This document shows, in pieces, positions 15,849-27,279 of a DNA stretch of 64,000 bases. Source of the DNA: an uncultured Acidobacteriaceae bacterium (GTDB lineage: Bacteria > Acidobacteriota > Terriglobia > Terriglobales > Acidobacteriaceae). The translations under genes were made by a program, and so were the position numbers. The stretch lies in contig CAVRMO010000004.1 in assembly GCA_963722405.1 (NCBI GenBank), positions 12,510 through 76,509 on the forward strand, given 5' to 3'. The notes under the pieces are model-generated. The model was not told the origin of the DNA. It saw nothing but the letters and a program-made list of their open reading frames with translations, and did not search any database. Position 1 is the stretch's first letter. Each line of letters starts with the position of its first letter.

Positions 15849-16184
15849 ATGAAACCGCCCCACGAACCCGACCTGGAATTGCGCGGCAAACTCATCCGCA
15901 GCCTCGGTGCTCTCCGCGAAATGCTGCCCGGCTCTTTTGTCGAACGCAAACGTGCCTGCGGCCGGCCCAACTGTCATTGTGCCGACGGCAAACACCTGCA
16001 CTCGCAATATCAGATCTCCGTACTGATTGACGGCAAGCCGAAAGCTCTCAACATTCCGGCGGAGTTCGTGGATGAGGTGCGCGAGAAAATCGAGATGCGC
16101 CGCCGCTTTGATGCCGCCGCCGCGACTATCTGCCGCGTAAATCTCAAGCGGTTTCTCCAAGAAAAGGAAGAGCGCCAAGTTTGA
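15849..16184 (+). CDS. IS accessory protein (orfA) with zinc-knuckle motif
   Basis: PGSFVERKRACGRPNCHCADGKHLHSQYQISV is a motif type I associate with small ORFs preceding some DDE transposases. The stop overlaps the transposase start. Confidence 0.7.
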   Translation: MKPPHEPDLELRGKLIRSLGALREMLPGSFVERKRACGRPNCHCADGKHLHSQYQISVLIDGKPKALNIPAEFVDEVREKIEMRRRFDAAAATICRVNLKRFLQEKEERQV

Positions 16185-17434
16185 CCCGACACCGGTTCGA
16201 GGCGTATCTCGACAAGGTGTTTAGCTTCTCGGATTTGGTGAGCGCTCTGCCCGAGGGACGGCAGTTTCCCCAGCACTCTTGGAAAAAGGTGTTTGACGCC
16301 GTCTTCTTGGGTGCCGCAATGCAGATTCCCAGCCTGCTGCAGATCGAGGCCGAGTGTCATCATGGGGCGCTGGCCCAGCGCATCGGACCGGTCAGCGACG
16401 ACACCCTCGGCTACTCGCTGGAACGACAATCTCCCGAACCCGTGTTCGCGCTCAGTTGTGAAATTGCACGCCGCCTTAAACGCAACGGCGTTCTACGCTC
16501 CGATTGGTCCCGAGGGCTGGTGGTGGCAGCGGTGGATGGCATTGAAATCTGCAGTTCGTTTGCCCGCTGTTGCCAGGCCTGTATGGAGCGAGAGATTCAA
16601 CACAAGGTGAACGGCGAGCTGAAAACTGATATTCAGTATTATCACCGCATCGTTGTCATAGTCTTGGTCAGCACCTCTTTCCCCATCCCCTTGGGGGTTC
16701 GCTTTCAGAAGAACGGCGAAGCCGAGGTCTCCTGCGCCCTGGCTCTACTGCAAGATCTGGTTGGGCAGTTGGGCCGCCGCTTCCTGGATGTGTTGGTGGG
16801 GGACGCTTTGTATTTGCAAGCGCCCTTCGTCAAGGAAGTGGAACGTCTGGGTCTGGTTTGGGCCTTCACCTTGAAAGAGAACCAGCCCGAGTTATTGCGC
16901 GAGGCGGAGCGTTGTACCCAGGATTCTCCCACCGGCATTCAGGCGGACCCGGGCCGGGAGATTCAATACTGGCACTTGCCGGAGGTCGATTGGCCGGTCG
17001 CCGATCGCCTAGTGCGGGTCGTCAAAACGGTTCGCACCGAACAGCAGCGCCGCGTCACCCTCCGCGAAAAAGACGCTCCTAAAACCAAAGGCAAGACGGC
17101 GATAGCCCAACCCAGCACCAACTTCTACGCCACCAATTTCGAACTGGGCTCGATCTCGCCGCTGTTCATTCATCAGTTCAGTCGCAGCCGTTGGCGAATC
17201 GATACCGAAGTCTTTCAGACCATCACTACCGACTGTCACCTCAAACACCCCGCTGTCCACCAAACCACAGCCTTGGTGGTGCTGACCATGATCCGGTTTC
17301 TTGCCTATACCCTGTCCCTGGTCTTCTACCACCGCCAAGTCCGTAGCCATGCCCGCCGAAAATGCGAGACCTTTCATGAGCTCGCCAAGCGCCTAGCCTA
17401 CTGGTTCGTCGCTCTTTCGCCCAATACCAGTTGA
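16181..17434 (+). CDS. DDE transposase (IS4-superfamily-like)
   Basis: The candidate catalytic triad is VAAVDGIEI, VLVGDALYLQ and RWRIDTEVFQTITTDCHLKH (YREK-like). A Cys-rich insert is present (CSSFARCCQACMERE). TTG start. Confidence 0.85.
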   Translation: MTRHRFEAYLDKVFSFSDLVSALPEGRQFPQHSWKKVFDAVFLGAAMQIPSLLQIEAECHHGALAQRIGPVSDDTLGYSLERQSPEPVFALSCEIARRLKRNGVLRSDWSRGLVVAAVDGIEICSSFARCCQACMEREIQHKVNGELKTDIQYYHRIVVIVLVSTSFPIPLGVRFQKNGEAEVSCALALLQDLVGQLGRRFLDVLVGDALYLQAPFVKEVERLGLVWAFTLKENQPELLREAERCTQDSPTGIQADPGREIQYWHLPEVDWPVADRLVRVVKTVRTEQQRRVTLREKDAPKTKGKTAIAQPSTNFYATNFELGSISPLFIHQFSRSRWRIDTEVFQTITTDCHLKHPAVHQTTALVVLTMIRFLAYTLSLVFYHRQVRSHARRKCETFHELAKRLAYWFVALSPNTS

Positions 17435-18401: not shown

Positions 18402-21400
18402 ATGAAAAGAACCGAACGCAACGCGGCGATTGCGACCGCTAACGACGACTCCGCGGAAAACGCGGACATCCGCGGAACGTCCAGGGCTGTGGCAGAGCCT
18501 CCGCTTGCTGACCTCGGGGCAATCTTGAGCAGTCTGCAAGTCATGCGCAATGGGGACTTCTCGGTCCGATTACCGGGTTCCTGGACTGGACTGGCAGGAA
18601 AGATTGCAGACACATTCAACGATATTGTTGCCGCCAATCAGCAGATGACGCAGGAACTCAGGCGCGTGGGACAAGTTGTGGGTAAAGAAGGAAGAACACG
18701 AGAGCGTACCAAGTTCCACGAATCGCGCGGCGCGTGGGGCGAGATGGAGAACTCGGTCAACACACTGGTAGAGGACTTACTCCGGCCTACGACAGAAGTG
18801 ACGCGCGCTATCGGGGCCGTCGCCCAAGGAAACCTGACTCAGACGGTTCGACTCGACGTTGACGGCCGGCCCCTGGAAGGAGAATTCCTACGCTCGGCCA
18901 ATATCGTCAATACGATGATCCAACAGCTCAGTGTCTTCACCGCTGAAGTTACGCGTGTGGCACGCGAGGTGGGGACTGACGGCAAGCTCGGCGGACAGGC
19001 ACAGGTACCTGGCGTGGCGGGCACCTGGAAAGACCTCACGGATTCCGTCAACTCAATGGCAAGCAACCTTACTGGTCAGGTGCGCAACATTGCCGAGGTC
19101 ACCAATGCTGTGGCGAATGGAGACCTATCGCGAAAGATCACGGTCGACGTGCGAGGGGAAATTCTCCAGTTGAAAGAAGCCATCAACACAATGGTCGACC
19201 AATTGCGATCCTTCGCGTCCGAAGTAACTCGCGTAGCGCGCGAGGTGGGTACTGACGGCAAATTGGGCGGGCAGGCCGTCGTGCCCGGCGTGGCCGGCAC
19301 ATGGAAGGACCTCACCGATTCCGTCAACGCAATGGCCGGCAATCTCACGGCCCAGGTGCGCAACATCGCCGAGGTGACGACAGCGGTGGCTCGCGGAGAT
19401 TTGTCGCGCAAGATCACCGTGGACGTGAAGGGCGAAATCCTCGAGCTCAAAGACACCATCAATACGATGGTTGACCAGCTCAACGCGTTCGCAGGCGAAG
19501 TGACGCGCGTCGCTCGCGAAGTGGGCACCGAAGGTAAGCTAGGCGGCCAGGCGCAGGTTCCCGGAGTCGGTGGCACTTGGAAAGACCTTACCGACAACGT
19601 CAACTTCATGGCCAGCAACCTGACTGGCCAGGTCCGCAACATTGCTGAGGTAGCAACAGCAATCGCGAGCGGCGACTTGTCGCGCAAAATCACTGTCGAT
19701 GTGCGTGGCGAGATTTTGCAGCTAAAAGAAACCCTCAACACGATGGTCGATCAGCTCAACCGGTTTGCCGGCGAAGTGACTCGCGTCGCCCGCGAGGTGG
19801 GCACGGAAGGCCGTCTCGGTGGGCAGGCAAACGTACCCGGCGTGGCGGGGACATGGAAGGATCTTACGGATTCGGTGAACTCGATGGCTGGTAACCTTAC
19901 CGGTCAGGTGCGCAACATCGCCGAGGTCACCACGGCGGTGGCGCGCGGTGATTTGTCGCGCAAAATCACTGTGGACGTGAAGGGCGAAATTCTCGAGTTG
20001 AAGAACACCATCAATACGATGGTGGACCAGCTGAATGCATTTGCCGGTGAGGTTACGCGCGTGGCGCGCGAAGTGGGAACCGAAGGCAAACTGGGTGGCC
20101 AAGCGCAAGTACCGGACGTGGCCGGCACGTGGAAAGACCTTACCGATAACGTCAATTTTATGGCAGGCAACCTGACGGCGCAGGTCCGCAATATCGCGGA
20201 GGTGGCGACGGCCGTTGCCCGTGGTGATCTGTCGCGCAAGATCACGGTGGACGTGAAGGGTGAAATTCTAGAACTCAAAGACACCCTCAACACCATGGTG
20301 GACCAGTTGCGGTCGTTTGCCTCCGAAGTGACCCGCGTCGCACGCGAAGTCGGTACCGACGGAAAGCTTGGTGGCCAAGCGCAGGTTCCGGGAGTCGGCG
20401 GTACATGGAAAGACCTTACGGATTCGGTGAATTCCATGGCGAGTAACTTGACAGGTCAGGTGCGCAACATCGCGGAAGTGTCCACTGCCATCGCCAACGG
20501 AGACCTGTCAAAGAAAATCACGGTCAACGTTAGCGGCGAGATTCTGCTGCTGAAGGAAACCATCAACACAATGGTGGACCAGCTCAACGCTTTCGCCGGT
20601 GAAGTGACACGCGTGGCGCGCGAAGTGGGCACAGAAGGTCGTCTCGGTGGCCAGGCCAATGTTCCAGGCGTGGCGGGAACGTGGAAGGACCTCACGGACT
20701 CCGTGAACTCAATGGCGGGGAACCTGACCGGCCAGGTGCGCAATATCGCCGAAGTGACCACGGCTGTGGCGCGCGGCGACTTGTCGCGCAAGATCACGGT
20801 CGACGTGAAGGGTGAGATTCTGGAGTTGAAGAACACCATTAACACGATGGTGGATCAGCTCAATGCTTTTGCCGGAGAAGTGACGCGGGTAGCGCGCGAA
20901 GTCGGCACCGACGGCAAGTTGGGCGGCCAGGCAGAAGTGCCGGGGGTGGCGGGTACGTGGAAGGACCTTACCGACAACGTGAATTTCATGGCCAGCAACC
21001 TGACGGGCCAAGTGCGCAACATCGCCGAAGTCGCAACCGCGATCGCCACTGGTGATCTGTCAAAGAAAATCACCGTGGACGTTCGTGGAGAGATTCTGCA
21101 GCTTAAAGAAACTCTCAACACCATGGTCGAGCAGTTACGATCGTTCGCCGCCGAGGTAACTCGCGTCGCCCGAGAGGTCGGAAGCGAAGGGCGCCTGGGC
21201 GGACAGGCCAACGTGCCGGGTGTCGCAGGAACGTGGAAGGACCTTACCGACTCAGTGAACGCCATGGCCGGCAACCTTACGGGTCAGGTGCGCAATATCG
21301 CCGAGGTGACCACCGCGGTCGCTCGTGGCGACTTGTCGCGCAAAATCACGGTGGATGTAAAGGGCGAAATTCTCGAGCTAAAGAACACCATTAACACGAT

Positions 21401-24400
21401 GGTGGATCAGCTCAACGCTTTCGCAGGCGAAGTGACACGCGTTGCGCGTGAAGTCGGTACCGACGGCAAGTTGGGCGGCCAGGCACAAGTGCCGGGCGTT
21501 GCCGGCACATGGAAGGACCTCACGGACAACGTTAACTTCATGGCCAACAATCTCACCGGCCAAGTCCGAAATATTGCCGAGGTCGCGACCGCTATTGCCA
21601 CAGGCGATCTGTCGAAAAAGATTACGGTTGACGTTCGCGGTGAAATCCTTCAGCTGAAAGAAACGCTCAACACCATGGTTGAGCAGTTGCGCTCGTTTGC
21701 CGCAGAAGTGACACGCGTAGCCCGCGAGGTTGGTACAGAAGGCCGGCTCGGTGGTCAGGCGAACGTACCCGGAGTTGCTGGGACGTGGAAAGACCTTACA
21801 GACTCGGTGAATGCCATGGCCCGCAACCTCACGGGACAGGTTCGCAATATCGCCGAGGTAACAACTGCCGTAGCGCGTGGCGATCTGTCGCGAAAGATCA
21901 CGGTCGATGTGAAAGGCGAAATTCTTGAGCTGAAGAACACGATCAACACCATGGTGGACCAGCTCAATGCGTTTGCGGCCGAGGTGACCCGTGTGGCCCG
22001 CGAAGTTGGTACCGAGGGCAAACTGGGCGGTCAGGCGCAGGTGCCCGGCGTTGCCGGAACATGGAAAGACTTGACCGACAACGTAAACGTGATGGCGGCA
22101 AATCTCACGGAGCAGGTGCGCGGAATCGTCAAGGTCGTGACCGCGGTCGCAAATGGTGTGCTCACACAGAAACTGACGGTTTACGCCAAGGGCGAAGTCG
22201 CTGCACTCGCTGACACGATTAACAACATGACTGACACGCTCGCTACCTTCGCCGATCAGGTTACGACTGTCGCCCGCGAAGTGGGAGTCGAAGGCCGTCT
22301 CGGTGGCCAGGCTAACGTGCCCGGCGCTGCCGGAACCTGGAAGGACCTAACTGGAAACGTCAATTTGCTGGCCGACAACCTGACCAACCAGGTGCGTGCT
22401 ATCGCTGAGGTCGCCACGGCAGTCACCAAGGGAGACTTGACGCGCTCGATCCAGGTTGAGGCCAGTGGCGAAGTTGCGGAGTTGAAAGACAACATCAACA
22501 CCATGATCAACAACCTCCGCCTCACCACGGAGCGCAACACAGAGCAGGACTGGCTGAAGACGAATCTCGCGCGATTCACTGGCATGTTGCAGGGCCAGCG
22601 CGATCTCACCTCTGTCGGAAGAATGCTGCTGTCGGAACTCTCTCCGTTGGTGAACGCACAACAAGGCGTGATCTATCAGATGGAGGGTGAAGGAACGAAT
22701 ACGATGGTCCTCCTCTCCGCGTTCGCCAGTGATGGTGAAAATGGCCATCTCAGGCAATTGAAGATCGGCGAAGGCCTCGTGGGCCAGTGCGCGGCCGAGA
22801 AGCGAAGGATGCTGATCAACGATTTGCCGCCTGACAGCATTTCGATTCGATCGGGTTTGTTTGAGGCTGTGCCGCGCAACGTGATCGTGCTGCCAGTTCT
22901 GTTTGAAGATCGAGTCAAAGCAGTCATCGAATTGGCTTCCTTGGGCACATTCACCGCGTCGCACCTTGCGTTCCTGGAGCAACTCACCGCCAGCATAGGC
23001 ATCGTGCTCAATAGCATTGAAGCAACCATGCAGACGGAAGGATTACTGAAGCAGTCACAGCAATTGGCGACCGAACTTCAGACCCAGCAAAAGGAATTGC
23101 AGCAAACCAATGAGCAACTGGCGCAGAAAGCACAACAGTTGGCCGAACAGAACGTCGAGGTGGAAAGGAAGAACCAGGAGATTGAGCAGGCCCGCCGCGC
23201 CCTGGAAGACAAGGCGAAAGAGCTCGCACTCACTTCCAAGTACAAATCTGAGTTCCTGGCGAACATGTCACACGAGCTACGGACGCCGCTGAACAGTATC
23301 CTGGTTCTCGGTCAGCAACTCGGAGACAATCCCGATCACAACTTGACGCCCAAGCAAGTCGAGTATGCACGCACCATTCACGGCGCCGGAACCGACCTGC
23401 TGAACCTGATCAGTGACATTCTTGACCTTTCGAAGATCGAGTCCGGTACGGTTTCGGTTGAGGCGGAGGAGGTCTTCTTCGCCAGCCTGCTGGATATGGT
23501 GGCTCGGCCTTTCCGCCATGAAGCCGAAAACCGGCGACTTGGCTTCGAGGTTCACACTGACCCGAACCTCGATCGCAGCCTGGTCACAGATTCCAAACGT
23601 CTGCAGCAGGTACTGAAGAATCTGCTGTCCAATTCCTTTAAGTTCACGGAGCAGGGCGGCGTTCGCCTTTCGGTTCAGCATGTCGAGAAAGGGTGGAGCG
23701 AAGATCATCCGATCCTAAGGCGAGCCGGGTCTGTCGTGGCCTTCGAAGTTGCAGACACGGGAATTGGCATTCCGCACGAAAAGCAACGGATCATCTTTGA
23801 AGCATTCCAGCAGGCAGATGCAGGAACGAGCCGCAAATACGGTGGAACCGGTTTGGGGCTGGCGATCAGCCGCGAGTTGGCCAGCCTCTTAGGCGGAGAG
23901 ATCCAGTTGCGCAGCGAGCTCGGCAATGGCAGCTCATTCACTCTATTTCTCCCCCAGACATATGTCGGCCCGTCCGTGCCCAGTGTGTCCGTTCTGGAGG
24001 GGAAGGCGTCTCCATCCTCCTTGCCTCTTCAATTAGCGAGTGTGGGCACGTCAGAGATTCCAGTTGAACGTATCGTCGATGATCGAGACCACATCCAGCC
24101 GGGCGACGCCGTCCTGTTGATCGTAGAAGACGATCCTCACTATGCTCGGGCGATTTGCGATCTATCCCGCGACAAGGGGTTCAAAGTCCTGGTGGCCCTA
24201 CGGGGCGCCGAAGGCCTTGCTCTCGCCCGCGAGTTTCATCCGACGGCCGTCTCACTGGATGTTTTTCTTCCCGACATGCTCGGCTGGACGGTCCTTAACC
24301 ATTTGAAACAAGACCCCGCAACCCGCCACATTCCCGTACAGATGCTTACCTTGGACGAGGGGCGACATCACGGCTTGGCACGTGGCGCCTTCGCCTTTGT

Positions 24401-25277
24401 GACGAAACCGACAACGCCTGAAGGACTGGATGCGGCTTTGGACCGTATCAAAGCATATGCGAGTCCTCGACGTAAGAAACTCTTGGTGATCGAAGACGAT
24501 CCGGCCGAACAGTTCAGTATTCGAGAGCTGCTGGGTTACGACGACATCGATGTCATCTTCGCCGATACCGGTTCCGAGGGGCTGGCGTTGGTCAATGAAG
24601 AGCAATTCGATTGTGTTGTGCTCGATCTCCGCCTGCCCGATATGTCGGGATTCGAGGTCCTGGAACAACTCCGTGATACGCCGTCGCTCAGCGATCTACC
24701 GGTAGTAGTTTTCACCGGGAAGGAACTGTCTTCGGAAGAAGATGCGCGGCTGCACTCCCTAGCGCGCAGCGTGGTTGTAAAAGGAGTGGAGTCGCCGGAG
24801 CGACTCCTCGACGAAACTGCACTGTTCCTCCACCGGGTAATTACCCACCTGCCACCTGAGAAGCAAAAGATGCTCGATCGACTGCACCGCTCCGATGAGG
24901 CGCTCGTTGGAAAGAAGGTTCTGGTGGTGGACGATGACGTGCGCAACATATTTGCGCTGAGCAGCGTACTTGAGCGCCGTGGAATGACGGTGCTTACTGC
25001 AGAGACCGGGCGCGAAGCTATAGCGACGCTCGAGTCCACTCCGGACGTCGCCATCACCCTTATGGACATCATGATGCCCGAAATGGACGGCTACGAAACG
25101 ATGCAGGTGATCCGCCAGAACTCGTCGTTCCGCCGCCTTCCAATCATTGCGCTTACGGCCAAGGCCATGAAGGGCGATCGTGAAAAGTGTCTGGAGGCAG
25201 GAGCTTCCGAGTATCTCGCGAAGCCCGTCAATACCGAGCAATTACTGTCAGCTCTGCGTATGTGGTTGCACAGGTAG
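18402..25277 (+). CDS. Giant hybrid sensor kinase: N-terminal HAMP units, then 13 x 92-aa poly-HAMP repeats, then GAF, coiled coil, HisKA, HATPase_c and three REC domains
   Basis: The repeat consensus is F-A[75 protein letters not shown]. GAF: [19 protein letters not shown]-box: [16 protein letters not shown]. ATPase boxes: [30 protein letters not shown] domains: [33 protein letters not shown]. Confidence 0.95.
18936..22523 (+). repeat. 13 tandem in-frame repeats of 276 bp (92 codons) inside the poly-HAMP kinase gene
   Basis: The unit boundaries fall at 18936 + n x 276. The last two units (21972-22523) are more diverged. Confidence 0.9.
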
Positions 25278-25332: not shown

Positions 25333-27279
25333 ATGCAGGCAAATGAACTAGTCAACATCCTGATGGTGGACGATCAGCCTGCGAAGCTGCTCAGCTACGA
25401 AGTCATCCTTCGCGAGTTAGGCGAAAATCTGCTCAAGGCCTCGTCTGGGAAGGAGGCCCTGGAGCAACTGTTGAAAACCGATGTTGCTGTCGTGTTGATG
25501 GATGTAAGCATGCCTGATCTGGACGGCTTTCAACTCGCCGAAATGATTCGCGAGCATCCAAGGTTCCAGAAAACTGCAATTATCTTCATTTCCGCCGTGC
25601 ACTTGACGGACGTCGACCGACTCAAAGGGTACCAGCGCGGTGCGGTGGATTACATATCTGTACCTGTAGTCCCGGAACTATTACGGGCGAAGGTCAGCGT
25701 GTTTGCCGAACTGCATCGCAAAACTCATCAACTCGAGAAGCTAAACCGGGATCTGGAGCAGCGAGTCGCACAAAGGACAGAGGAGCTTCAGGCGAGTGAG
25801 GGTCAATTCCGCACGCTTGCCAACTCGATCCCGCAATTGGCTTGGATTGCCGAGCCGGACGGATCTGCGCGTTGGTACAACCAGCGCTGGTACGAATACA
25901 CGGACACCAATCTGGAAGAGATGCGCGACGGAGGTTGGCATAGGCTCATTCATCCTGAACATGTCAGCCGCGTGATCTCCGGAGTCGAACGCTCTTGGGC
26001 CTCGGGCGATCCATGGGAGGATACGTTCCCGCTACGGGGACGGGACGGCGAATACCGTTGGTTCCTTTCGCGGGCGCTCCCAATTCGCGAAACCAGTGGC
26101 CGAATCGTGCGGTGGTTTGGAACGAACACTGATATTACGGAGCAGAAACGCGCCCAGGAGCGGATATCCGAGAGCGAAAGGCGCTTCCGAACCATGGCCG
26201 ACAAAGCGCCGGTCATGATTTGGATTTCCGGACTCGACAAGCTGCGCACTTACTTCAACAAGCCATGGCTTGAGTTTGCCGGAAGAACCCTGGGGCAGGA
26301 GATAGGAGATGGTTGGATGGAGGGCGTCCACCCCGACGATCGCGAGCGATGTTGGCGGACTCACAGTGTCTCGTTCGACGAGCGCGTTCCCTTCTCCGTG
26401 GAATATCGTTTGCGCCGAGCGGACGGGGAATACCGCTGGATTATGGATAACGGCGTCCCGCTGATTGGACCGGACCAGAGCTTCTCGGGCTATATCGGGG
26501 GATGCATCGACATGACAGAGCGAAAGCTGACCGAAAATGCACTAATCAGGTCCGAAAAGCTTGCGGCTATGGGTCGCTTGGCCGGCATCATATCCCATGA
26601 AATCAATAATCCGTTAGAGGCTATTTCCAATGCATTCTATCTTTTGCGAAAGCATCCGTCATTGGATAGCGAAGCTCACCATTATGCGACCTTAGCTGAA
26701 CAGGAATTGGCACGAGTAACACATATAACCAAGCAGACACTTAGCTTCTATCGCGAATCAAAGGAACCCGTATCGATCTCCCTTTTTGACGTTCTGGACA
26801 ATGTTCTCGAACTACAGTCTCGTCGCATAACTGCGAATGGGATCTCGTTGGAGAAGCAATTTCGCGGTACAGCTGCGATCCAGGGATTTCCAAATGAACT
26901 CAAGCAGGTATTTCTGAACCTCATTGGAAATGCAATAGAGGCAATGAAAGAGGGAGGGCGCCTCCGCGTGCAGGTCCATGATTGTACTGAAGGGACAACA
27001 AGACGACAAGGAGTACGGATTTCGATATGCGACACGGGATCAGGTATTGATCCACAATATGCCAAGAGAATCTTCGAACCATTTTTTACTACGAAAGACA
27101 CTAAAGGCACCGGACTTGGTCTTTGGATTAGCAGAGGGATCATTCAGAAGTATGACGGCACAATACGGTTTCGCAGCATGCGTTCGGCGACTGGACGCAT
27201 GACTTGTTTTTCCATTTTCATTCCCGGGTTGCCGACTGCTCCAAACTTGGGCTTTAGTATGTCCGCGACGGCTGGGTAG
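25333..27279 (+). CDS. Sensor histidine kinase: REC - PAS - PAS - HisKA - HATPase_c
   Basis: REC: NILMVDDQPAKLLSYE..VVLMDVSMPDLDG. PAS: WYNQRWYEYTD and YFNKPWLEFAG. H-box: IISHEINNPLEAI. ATPase boxes: LIGNAIEAM, DTGSGI, GTGLGLWISRGI. Confidence 0.9.
   Translation: MQANELVNILMVDDQPAKLLSYEVILRELGENLLKASSGKEALEQLLKTDVAVVLMDVSMPDLDGFQLAEMIREHPRFQKTAIIFISAVHLTDVDRLKGYQRGAVDYISVPVVPELLRAKVSVFAELHRKTHQLEKLNRDLEQRVAQRTEELQASEGQFRTLANSIPQLAWIAEPDGSARWYNQRWYEYTDTNLEEMRDGGWHRLIHPEHVSRVISGVERSWASGDPWEDTFPLRGRDGEYRWFLSRALPIRETSGRIVRWFGTNTDITEQKRAQERISESERRFRTMADKAPVMIWISGLDKLRTYFNKPWLEFAGRTLGQEIGDGWMEGVHPDDRERCWRTHSVSFDERVPFSVEYRLRRADGEYRWIMDNGVPLIGPDQSFSGYIGGCIDMTERKLTENALIRSEKLAAMGRLAGIISHEINNPLEAISNAFYLLRKHPSLDSEAHHYATLAEQELARVTHITKQTLSFYRESKEPVSISLFDVLDNVLELQSRRITANGISLEKQFRGTAAIQGFPNELKQVFLNLIGNAIEAMKEGGRLRVQVHDCTEGTTRRQGVRISICDTGSGIDPQYAKRIFEPFFTTKDTKGTGLGLWISRGIIQKYDGTIRFRSMRSATGRMTCFSIFIPGLPTAPNLGFSMSATAG

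Follow-up and report, generated by a model that had tools for sequence, protein, structure and literature searches.

The window analysed here, 64,000 nucleotides of a contig from an uncultured Acidobacteriaceae bacterium (GenBank assembly GCA_963722405.1, contig CAVRMO010000004.1, positions 12,510 to 76,509), carries the gene of a large soluble hybrid histidine kinase whose N-terminal part is an array of tandemly repeated HAMP domains. A preliminary description of this DNA, made from its letters and open reading frames (ORFs), had drawn attention to units of the array that encode the same protein with different codons. Cutting the gene at positions 18936+276k gives the 13 in-frame units of 92 amino acids (aa) that it had announced, and Tandem Repeats Finder reports a single array with a 276-bp period (18945-22079, 11.4 copies, 73% matches). 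The gene, its parts and its neighbours are listed in Table 1.

The poly-HAMP kinase and its units

A Pfam scan of the protein finds HAMP_2 (14 matches) alternating with HAMP (13 matches), then GAF_2 (residues 1400-1536), HisKA (1615-1682), HATPase_c (1730-1852) and three receiver (REC) domains; the units are thus HAMP pairs (di-HAMPs) and the array is followed by a GAF domain, as had been proposed. The same scan detects no Pfam domain upstream of the HAMPs, and hydropathy gives no sign of a transmembrane segment, the maximum Kyte-Doolittle value over 19 aa being 1.44 for the complete sequence and 1.04 within its first 200 residues. The region before the array had been described as short and devoid of an obvious transmembrane segment. 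The second part of this statement stands, but only the tail is short, as the 178 residues in question hold three further HAMPs: a first HAMP of the D1 type and a degenerate di-HAMP, here called unit 0, which has a proline kink (LRPTTEV) and a 5-residue connector insertion and is 34% identical to unit 4. With unit 0 included, the kinase has one D1 HAMP and 14 di-HAMPs, that is, 29 HAMPs in total.

Judged by its sequence, the kinase belongs to a known family, the kinase-associated poly-HAMP proteins of the AskA type. Its residues 37-316 align without gaps to residues 50-329 of 9TRK chain A (PDB search, E = 6e-117), and for two internal units the identity to modules of AskA in that chain is about 88%. 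The hallmarks are aligned as well, LRPTTEV with VQPTTEM and an 11-residue stretch at the connector insertion with EVDGRPLRGEF. The entries 9TRK and 9TRJ are fragments of six and four HAMPs, respectively, of Myxococcus xanthus AskA (Coles et al., Protein Sci 2026; PMC13446029). Kinase-associated arrays start with an N-terminal D1 HAMP and continue with repeats of a non-canonical C and a canonical D2 HAMP; their third HAMP has a proline kink and a connector insertion, they lead into GAF, DHp/CA and REC domains, and they have no membrane segment (PMC13446029). Every one of these defining features is found in the present kinase, which also shares with AskA (MXAN_0712) and AskB (MXAN_6735) the 92-aa length of the C-D2 repeats, a conserved Trp in each of them, the presence of several REC domains and, over the HAMPs, the weak Pfam echoes of SpoIIID and RpiR-HTH described by Marcos-Torres et al. 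It differs from them in its host, an acidobacterium without a known developmental programme, and in the number of its HAMPs, 29 where AskA has 21 and AskB 31 (PMC13446029). The array had been called far longer than usual; these counts place it within the range of the family.

Table 1. Features of the poly-HAMP kinase locus (positions in the window)
Feature	Position	Strand	Basis or remark
AskA-type soluble poly-HAMP hybrid histidine kinase	18402..25277	+	2291 aa; ORF, translation, Pfam, gapless alignment to 9TRK
Variable N-terminal tail, about residues 1-35	18402..18506	+	without transmembrane or signal segment
First HAMP, D1-type, canonical, about residues 36-88	18507..18665	+	aligned to first HAMP of AskA in 9TRK
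Degenerate di-HAMP unit 0, about residues 89-178	18666..18935	+	aligned to AskA HAMP2-3
Thirteen in-frame 276-bp (92-aa) di-HAMP units, non-canonical C + canonical D2	18936..22523	+	
Unit 4, same protein as unit 7	19764..20039	+	
Unit 7, same protein as unit 4; 41 synonymous differences	20592..20867	+	
Units 8-9, source of the 184-aa super-unit duplication	20868..21419	+	one-to-one with units 8-9 of 12-unit relatives
Units 10-11, extra copy of units 8-9	21420..21971	+	synonymous sites saturated
Diverged terminal units 12-13	21972..22523	+	correspond by orthology to the final pair of units in all relatives
Linker and GAF domain, residues 1375-1545	22524..23036	+	Pfam GAF_2 at 1400-1536
Coiled coil, HisKA (DHp), HATPase_c core, residues 1546-1860	23037..23981	+	Pfam
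Three REC domains, residues 1906-2291	24117..25274	+	Pfam Response_reg, three stretches
Downstream REC-PAS-PAS-HisKA-HATPase kinase	25333..27279	+	Pfam
Two single-domain response regulators, 125 and 130 aa	27296..28144	+	Pfam
DDE transposase ORF (PF01609)	16181..17434	+	between divergent blocks of signalling genes, some 1 kb upstream of kinase start

Units 4 and 7 are the clearest case of identical proteins with scrambled codons. All 92 residues are the same and 41 codons differ, every one of them synonymously, which confirms the preliminary count and amounts to a nucleotide divergence of 14.9%. The 41 differences (23 transitions, 18 transversions) all fall on third codon positions and are evenly spread, the longest identical run being 17 nt; the proportion of synonymous differences (pS) is 0.58, the synonymous distance (dS) about 1.1 and the non-synonymous distance (dN) zero. 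The two protein classes that had been recognised are found again, with units 4, 7, 9 and 11 only 0-3 aa apart and units 8 and 10 only 2 aa apart, and so is the divergence of units 12 and 13 (26-36 aa different from the rest). Unit 8 differs from unit 10, and unit 9 from unit 11, by 2 aa, with the same codon at 44/90 and 41/90 positions, respectively. Over the whole array, DNA identity between units ranges from 62 to 85% and no stretch common to any two of them exceeds 35 nt. The synonymous sites of the units are near saturation.

At the protein level, units 1-11 are variable in 26 of their 92 columns. Differences between units (columns 37/40/43/47 and 78/81-83/88/91-92) form stripes with a spacing of 3-4 residues in the second helix of each HAMP; from this spacing they appear to lie on one face of that helix. 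The array region also contains ORFs on the opposite strand (100-221 aa, 19076-21274 minus, for instance 19076-19741). Their between-species pS (about 0.02) and proportion of non-synonymous differences (pN, about 0.16-0.20), taken in their own frame, mirror the constraint on the sense strand, and we therefore rejected them as genes.

Constraint and positional identity of the units

How strongly are the units held? We compared the genome of this window, hereafter G000, in which the kinase gene is present in a single copy, with that of a sister species (G002) and of two other species of the genus (G014 and G016). Divergences were measured against G000 and estimated by the method of Nei and Gojobori (NG86), with a Jukes-Cantor correction for the dS of the G002 array. 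Between G000 and G002, none of the 1196 residues of the 13-unit array differs, at a pS of 0.52-0.55 and a dS of about 0.9-1.0; the array has changed by 12 aa in G014 and 6 aa in G016. In the same three species, respectively, the N-terminal tail differs by 25%, 39% and 32% of its residues, the GAF domain by 4.1%, 7.0% and 4.7%, the ATPase by 6.5%, 9.4% and 11.8%, and the REC domains by 5.4%, 11.4% and 4.9%. Within the genus, species differ from one another at 25-50% of residues 1-60. The pS of the flanking regions of the gene is 0.59-0.76, so the synonymous divergence of the array is ordinary for this pair of genomes and it is the non-synonymous rate that is extraordinary.

As yardsticks for the G000/G002 pair we took EF-Tu and the best G000 hits of 35 ORFs from 60 kb of G002; rpoB could not be recovered from the G000 assembly, which leaves EF-Tu as the single housekeeping reference. 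EF-Tu, extracted by its coordinates with loci that yielded an antisense frame left out, differs at 13 of 394 residues (3.3%), significantly more than the array (Fisher p = 1e-8). The poly-HAMP kinase is the most conserved of the 35 sampled proteins, with 97.1% identity against a median of about 76%, and over these 60 kb synteny is limited to the kinase and the next gene. The extreme purifying selection that had been postulated on every unit is thus borne out, with no change in 1196 residues at a dS of about 1 against 4-6% in the flanking domains, and there is strong support for selection on the array being more stringent, between these two genomes, than on EF-Tu.

The same contrast between the array and the remainder of the kinase is seen at larger distances. 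Against G000, best-match unit identity is 98% in another acidobacterial genus (locus L035), where the GAF-to-REC part is 85% identical; the corresponding values are 93% and 71-73% in Bradyrhizobium (loci L054, L064, L066, L070, L073 and L074), and 91% and 65% in Nannocystis. Among cultured Bradyrhizobium species, arrays differ by 0.9-3.0% and the GAF-to-REC part by 4.5-13.6%. An identity of 71-73% across phyla in the GAF-kinase-REC part is unusually high for a sensor kinase, which suggests that inter-phylum transfer among soil bacteria may have occurred on top of the constraint. Units 4, 7 and 9, in the form they have in L035, are 1-3 of 92 residues away from unit 7 of Bradyrhizobium.

Of 18 other genomes in the genus, 6 have the kinase gene, and so do several from a sister family. 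Array length and the identity of each unit are kept across species, one of the checks that the preliminary description had asked for: there are 13 units in G000, G002, G014 and G016 (11 in G012), and units 1-9, 12 and 13 of G000 map one-to-one to units 1-11 of L035 with 0-4 aa differences. At the 26 variable columns, the residues specific to each unit are retained at 286/286 positions in G002, 279/286 in G014, 281/286 in G016 and 221/234 in L035, whereas between different units of G000 the agreement at such positions is only 53%. Choices such as K or R, D or E, and S, A or G are therefore frozen at each place in the rod, although the alternatives are tolerated elsewhere in it. Neither G012 nor the 12-unit relatives have units 10-11, an additional copy of the 184-aa super-unit 8-9. 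Units 4 and 7 are nearly identical, with 0-5 aa between them, in as many as 29 genomes of acidobacteria.

A trivial origin of the array in an assembly or binning error, with a wrong repeat number or a chimera of strains, has to be considered, G000 being a metagenome-assembled genome (MAG) in 25 contigs. However, units that are 62-85% identical in DNA are no repeats to an assembler, the 13 units recur in the same order and with the same unit-specific residues in the independent assemblies G002, G014 and G016, and the single-contig MAG G010 aligns over the entire gene. An artefact in the array length is unlikely, and we give this explanation as a whole next to no weight.

In several copies of the gene the reading frame is interrupted. 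The G010 orthologue (OY969419.1; L010/L034), with 88.7% DNA identity, is split into three frames of 1200, 256 and 820 aa; the G015 copy (L014) has several stops, and the ORF is truncated in several other copies from MFD MAGs. Indel errors of long reads could be the reason, or else the copies could be real pseudogenes, a distinction that matters in view of the extreme constraint seen elsewhere.

Taken across the relatives (loci L034-L113), array length has a clear mode: most full-length members, in several phyla, have exactly 12 units detected by hidden Markov model (unit 0 and 11 others) and about 2110 aa, the outliers having 7, 10 or 13-15 units. Array length itself looks selected on the basis of this distribution.

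We consider it very likely that the appearance of identical proteins with scrambled codons results from old age combined with extreme constraint, in a kinase of the AskA type with 29 HAMPs. The modules would have been amplified long ago, the core of 11 units and unit 0 being older than the split of the acidobacterial genera, and the last step, the copying of units 8-9 into units 10-11, would have taken place within this genus. Afterwards, synonymous sites would have drifted close to saturation while purifying selection held almost every amino acid, including surface residues and the 26 positions that tell the units apart.

Synonymous sites and exchange between units

A different explanation of the scrambled codons, raised in the preliminary description, is that synonymous sites were driven apart by selection to guard the array against RecA-mediated deletion. 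In its favour are the intrinsic instability of long perfect repeats, the 35-nt ceiling on the identity shared by any two units and the trivial fact that surviving arrays are those that escaped collapse. We compared the array with 500 random synonymous recodings of its protein, drawn with the codon usage of the array, and found it to be slightly more self-similar than the recodings on every measure. Mean identity between units is 0.723 in the real array against 0.709+/-0.004 (0.693 with the codon usage of the rest of the gene), the longest shared run is 35 nt against 26.6+/-3.7 nt, and runs of at least 20 nt number 14 instead of 8.1. Likewise, where two units have a residue in common they also share its codon in 45% of cases, above and not below the 40% or 42% expected by chance from genome or array codon usage, respectively. 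Nor is the pS of orthologous units (0.46-0.67) higher than that of the flanking domains. Selection for nucleotide dissimilarity is therefore rejected, its probability being very small in our estimate; what is left of the idea is that diverged arrays cannot collapse by homologous recombination.

Could the units instead be kept identical by exchange among themselves? Under concerted evolution, recurrent gene conversion would homogenise the units, especially 4 and 7, and the synonymous differences would be those accumulated since the last conversion. Several observations in relatives speak for this. In four loci (L036, L039, L050 and L059), codon identity between units 4 and 7 reaches 0.74-0.82, against a background of 0.55-0.63, and their identical tracts extend up to 38-68 nt, as expected from short conversion patches. 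Averaged over 20 genomes, units 4 and 7 are more similar within a genome (0.60) than across genomes (0.50). Arrays of the sister family (G025, G027 and G033) have lineage-specific consensus residues in all units and a minimum pS of 0.15-0.30, and in L091 (Vulcaniibacterium thermophilum) two units are 99.6% identical in DNA. L106 and L109 (Pyrinomonadaceae) contain unit pairs with 95-96% DNA identity, and L112 is likewise among the arrays with unit pairs at 95-99.6%. The near-identical pairs of L091, L106/L109 and L112 are young duplications or conversions, unlike the saturated array of G000, and are useful to date the rate at which new copies diverge.

However, conversion cannot explain the 0/1196 changes between species, and it would erase the unit-specific residues, which are conserved. 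The codon bias shared within a genome also inflates within-genome identity. As to G000 itself, the 41 evenly spaced differences between units 4 and 7 and the 17-nt limit of their identical runs led us to reject a recent conversion, though tracts occur in relatives. The preliminary description had argued against recent duplication or conversion; this holds for the present genome and has to be qualified for the family, in which several relatives have unit 4/7 tracts of 58-68 nt that resemble conversion tracts. We regard concerted evolution as an unlikely explanation of the G000 array. Over deep time, these arrays are shaped by amplification and conversion; that of the present genus has stood still long enough for its synonymous sites to saturate.

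Some points weigh against our explanation by age and constraint. The codon identity of units 4 and 7 in G000, 0.55, is about two standard deviations above the array background (0.45+/-0.05) and may fit an old conversion event in this lineage; it comes close to, but stays below, the 0.61-0.62 found between unit 4 of G000 and its orthologues in G002 and G010. Values of dS near or above 1 are imprecise, as NG86 is then close to saturation, most of the genomes compared are MAGs, and the acidobacterial members of the family are known from sequence alone. Finally, core packing by itself does not explain why surface residues are constrained, and for the cause of such extreme selection we propose below what we infer from the architecture of the protein.

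Partners, relatives and function of the rod

On its 3' side, the kinase gene is followed by a second kinase gene and by two single-domain response regulators; two further REC-kinases lie upstream on the other strand. We surveyed the neighbours of 80 poly-HAMP loci (L034-L113) from Acidobacteriota, Alpha-, Beta- and Gammaproteobacteria and Myxococcota. A homologue of the REC-containing N-terminal part of the downstream kinase was found outside the poly-HAMP ORF at 73 of the 80 loci, mostly 12-170 nt downstream, and the single-domain response regulators seldom adjoin the poly-HAMP kinase at other loci (5 and 3 of 80). By this conservation of gene order, the poly-HAMP kinase and the downstream REC protein form a conserved two-gene module, and the downstream REC-PAS-PAS kinase is likely to be the phosphorelay partner.

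Outside the AskA family, the closest parallel is with the fungal group III hybrid histidine kinases (Nik1/Os-1/TcsC/Bos1), which are also cytoplasmic and have N-terminal HAMP-pair repeats of about 90 aa upstream of kinase and REC domains. The fungal proteins have only about five to six repeats and one REC domain and, to our knowledge, no GAF domain. A common origin of the fungal and bacterial arrays is considered likely (PMC13446029). The multi-HAMP chemoreceptor Aer2 (PDB 3LNR/3VOL), weakly matched in our PDB search (E = 0.0017), also concatenates canonical and non-canonical HAMPs in alternating rotational states. Unlike the present kinase, Aer2 and the chemoreceptor-type arrays have HAMPs of groups A and B, few and dissimilar, and a methyl-accepting output; their origin is independent (PMC13446029).

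In the kinase-associated arrays, a parallel dimer forms the rod as a four-helix coiled coil, and these arrays are modelled in strained conformations held by inter-domain contacts that include the conserved Trp (PMC13446029). Given the identity of about 88% to crystallised AskA, the HAMPs of the present kinase would form parallel homodimeric four-helix bundles with alternating packing of the knobs-into-holes, the x-da and the da-x type. Its input and transmission element would then be a homodimeric four-helix rod of 29 concatenated HAMPs. If the scheme set out for these arrays (PMC13446029) applies, the alternating non-canonical and canonical HAMPs would relay an axial rotation of the helices whose sense is inverted at each domain, so that each di-HAMP would invert the rotation, re-invert it and hand it on. 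The signal would run along the rod to the GAF-DHp-CA part; phosphate would then reach the three receivers within the kinase as well as the REC protein conserved downstream of it.

Such a mechanism may account for the constraint. The energetics of the 29 coupled switches, finely balanced, would add up to the output, and a change of free energy anywhere would matter; with so many coupled switches near balance, even conservative changes would be deleterious and selection would bear on every residue. Contacts along the rod surface probably add to the constraint, as the invariant surface positions suggest. AskA and AskB belong to an Ask signalling complex that responds to ambruticin and glycerol. 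The two interact with each other and with AskC, MrpC and FruA, and in vitro AskB also binds to DNA (PMC7643160). On a bolder view, the rod would be coded by position: its 14 di-HAMPs would not be interchangeable relay modules, and each would have a non-redundant role of its own. Together they could offer partner proteins or DNA a surface for binding or assembly over the full length of the rod, or they could be switches, each with its own tuning, that have to stand in a given order. Position coding would explain the invariant surface residues, the invariant unit-specific choices of K/R, D/E and S/A/G, and an evolution slower than that of EF-Tu; we propose it tentatively, as a possibility that is for now rather less probable than its contrary.

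Bacterial poly-HAMP systems 'remain poorly characterized', and near-identical modules have been ascribed to intragenic amplification without an analysis at the DNA level (PMC13446029); in the present case the DNA shows the amplification to be ancient. The evolutionary regime described here, with ancient position-orthologous modules, saturated synonymous sites and conservation above that of EF-Tu, is apparently unreported: we saw it mentioned nowhere in PMC13446029, and a full-text search on HAMP, synonymous sites, purifying selection and repeats returned no paper on it. Near-identical modules need not mean recent amplification, since in this lineage they are old and each has kept its own identity across genera. 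The array thus offers a clean natural example of a repeat at the protein level without a repeat at the DNA level, which bears on repeat detection and on the habit of inferring 'recent amplification' from protein similarity. For the biology of these kinases, our findings argue that no module is redundant, that surface and core positions both matter, and that the length of the array and the order of its units are functional; the redundancy of modules becomes directly testable.

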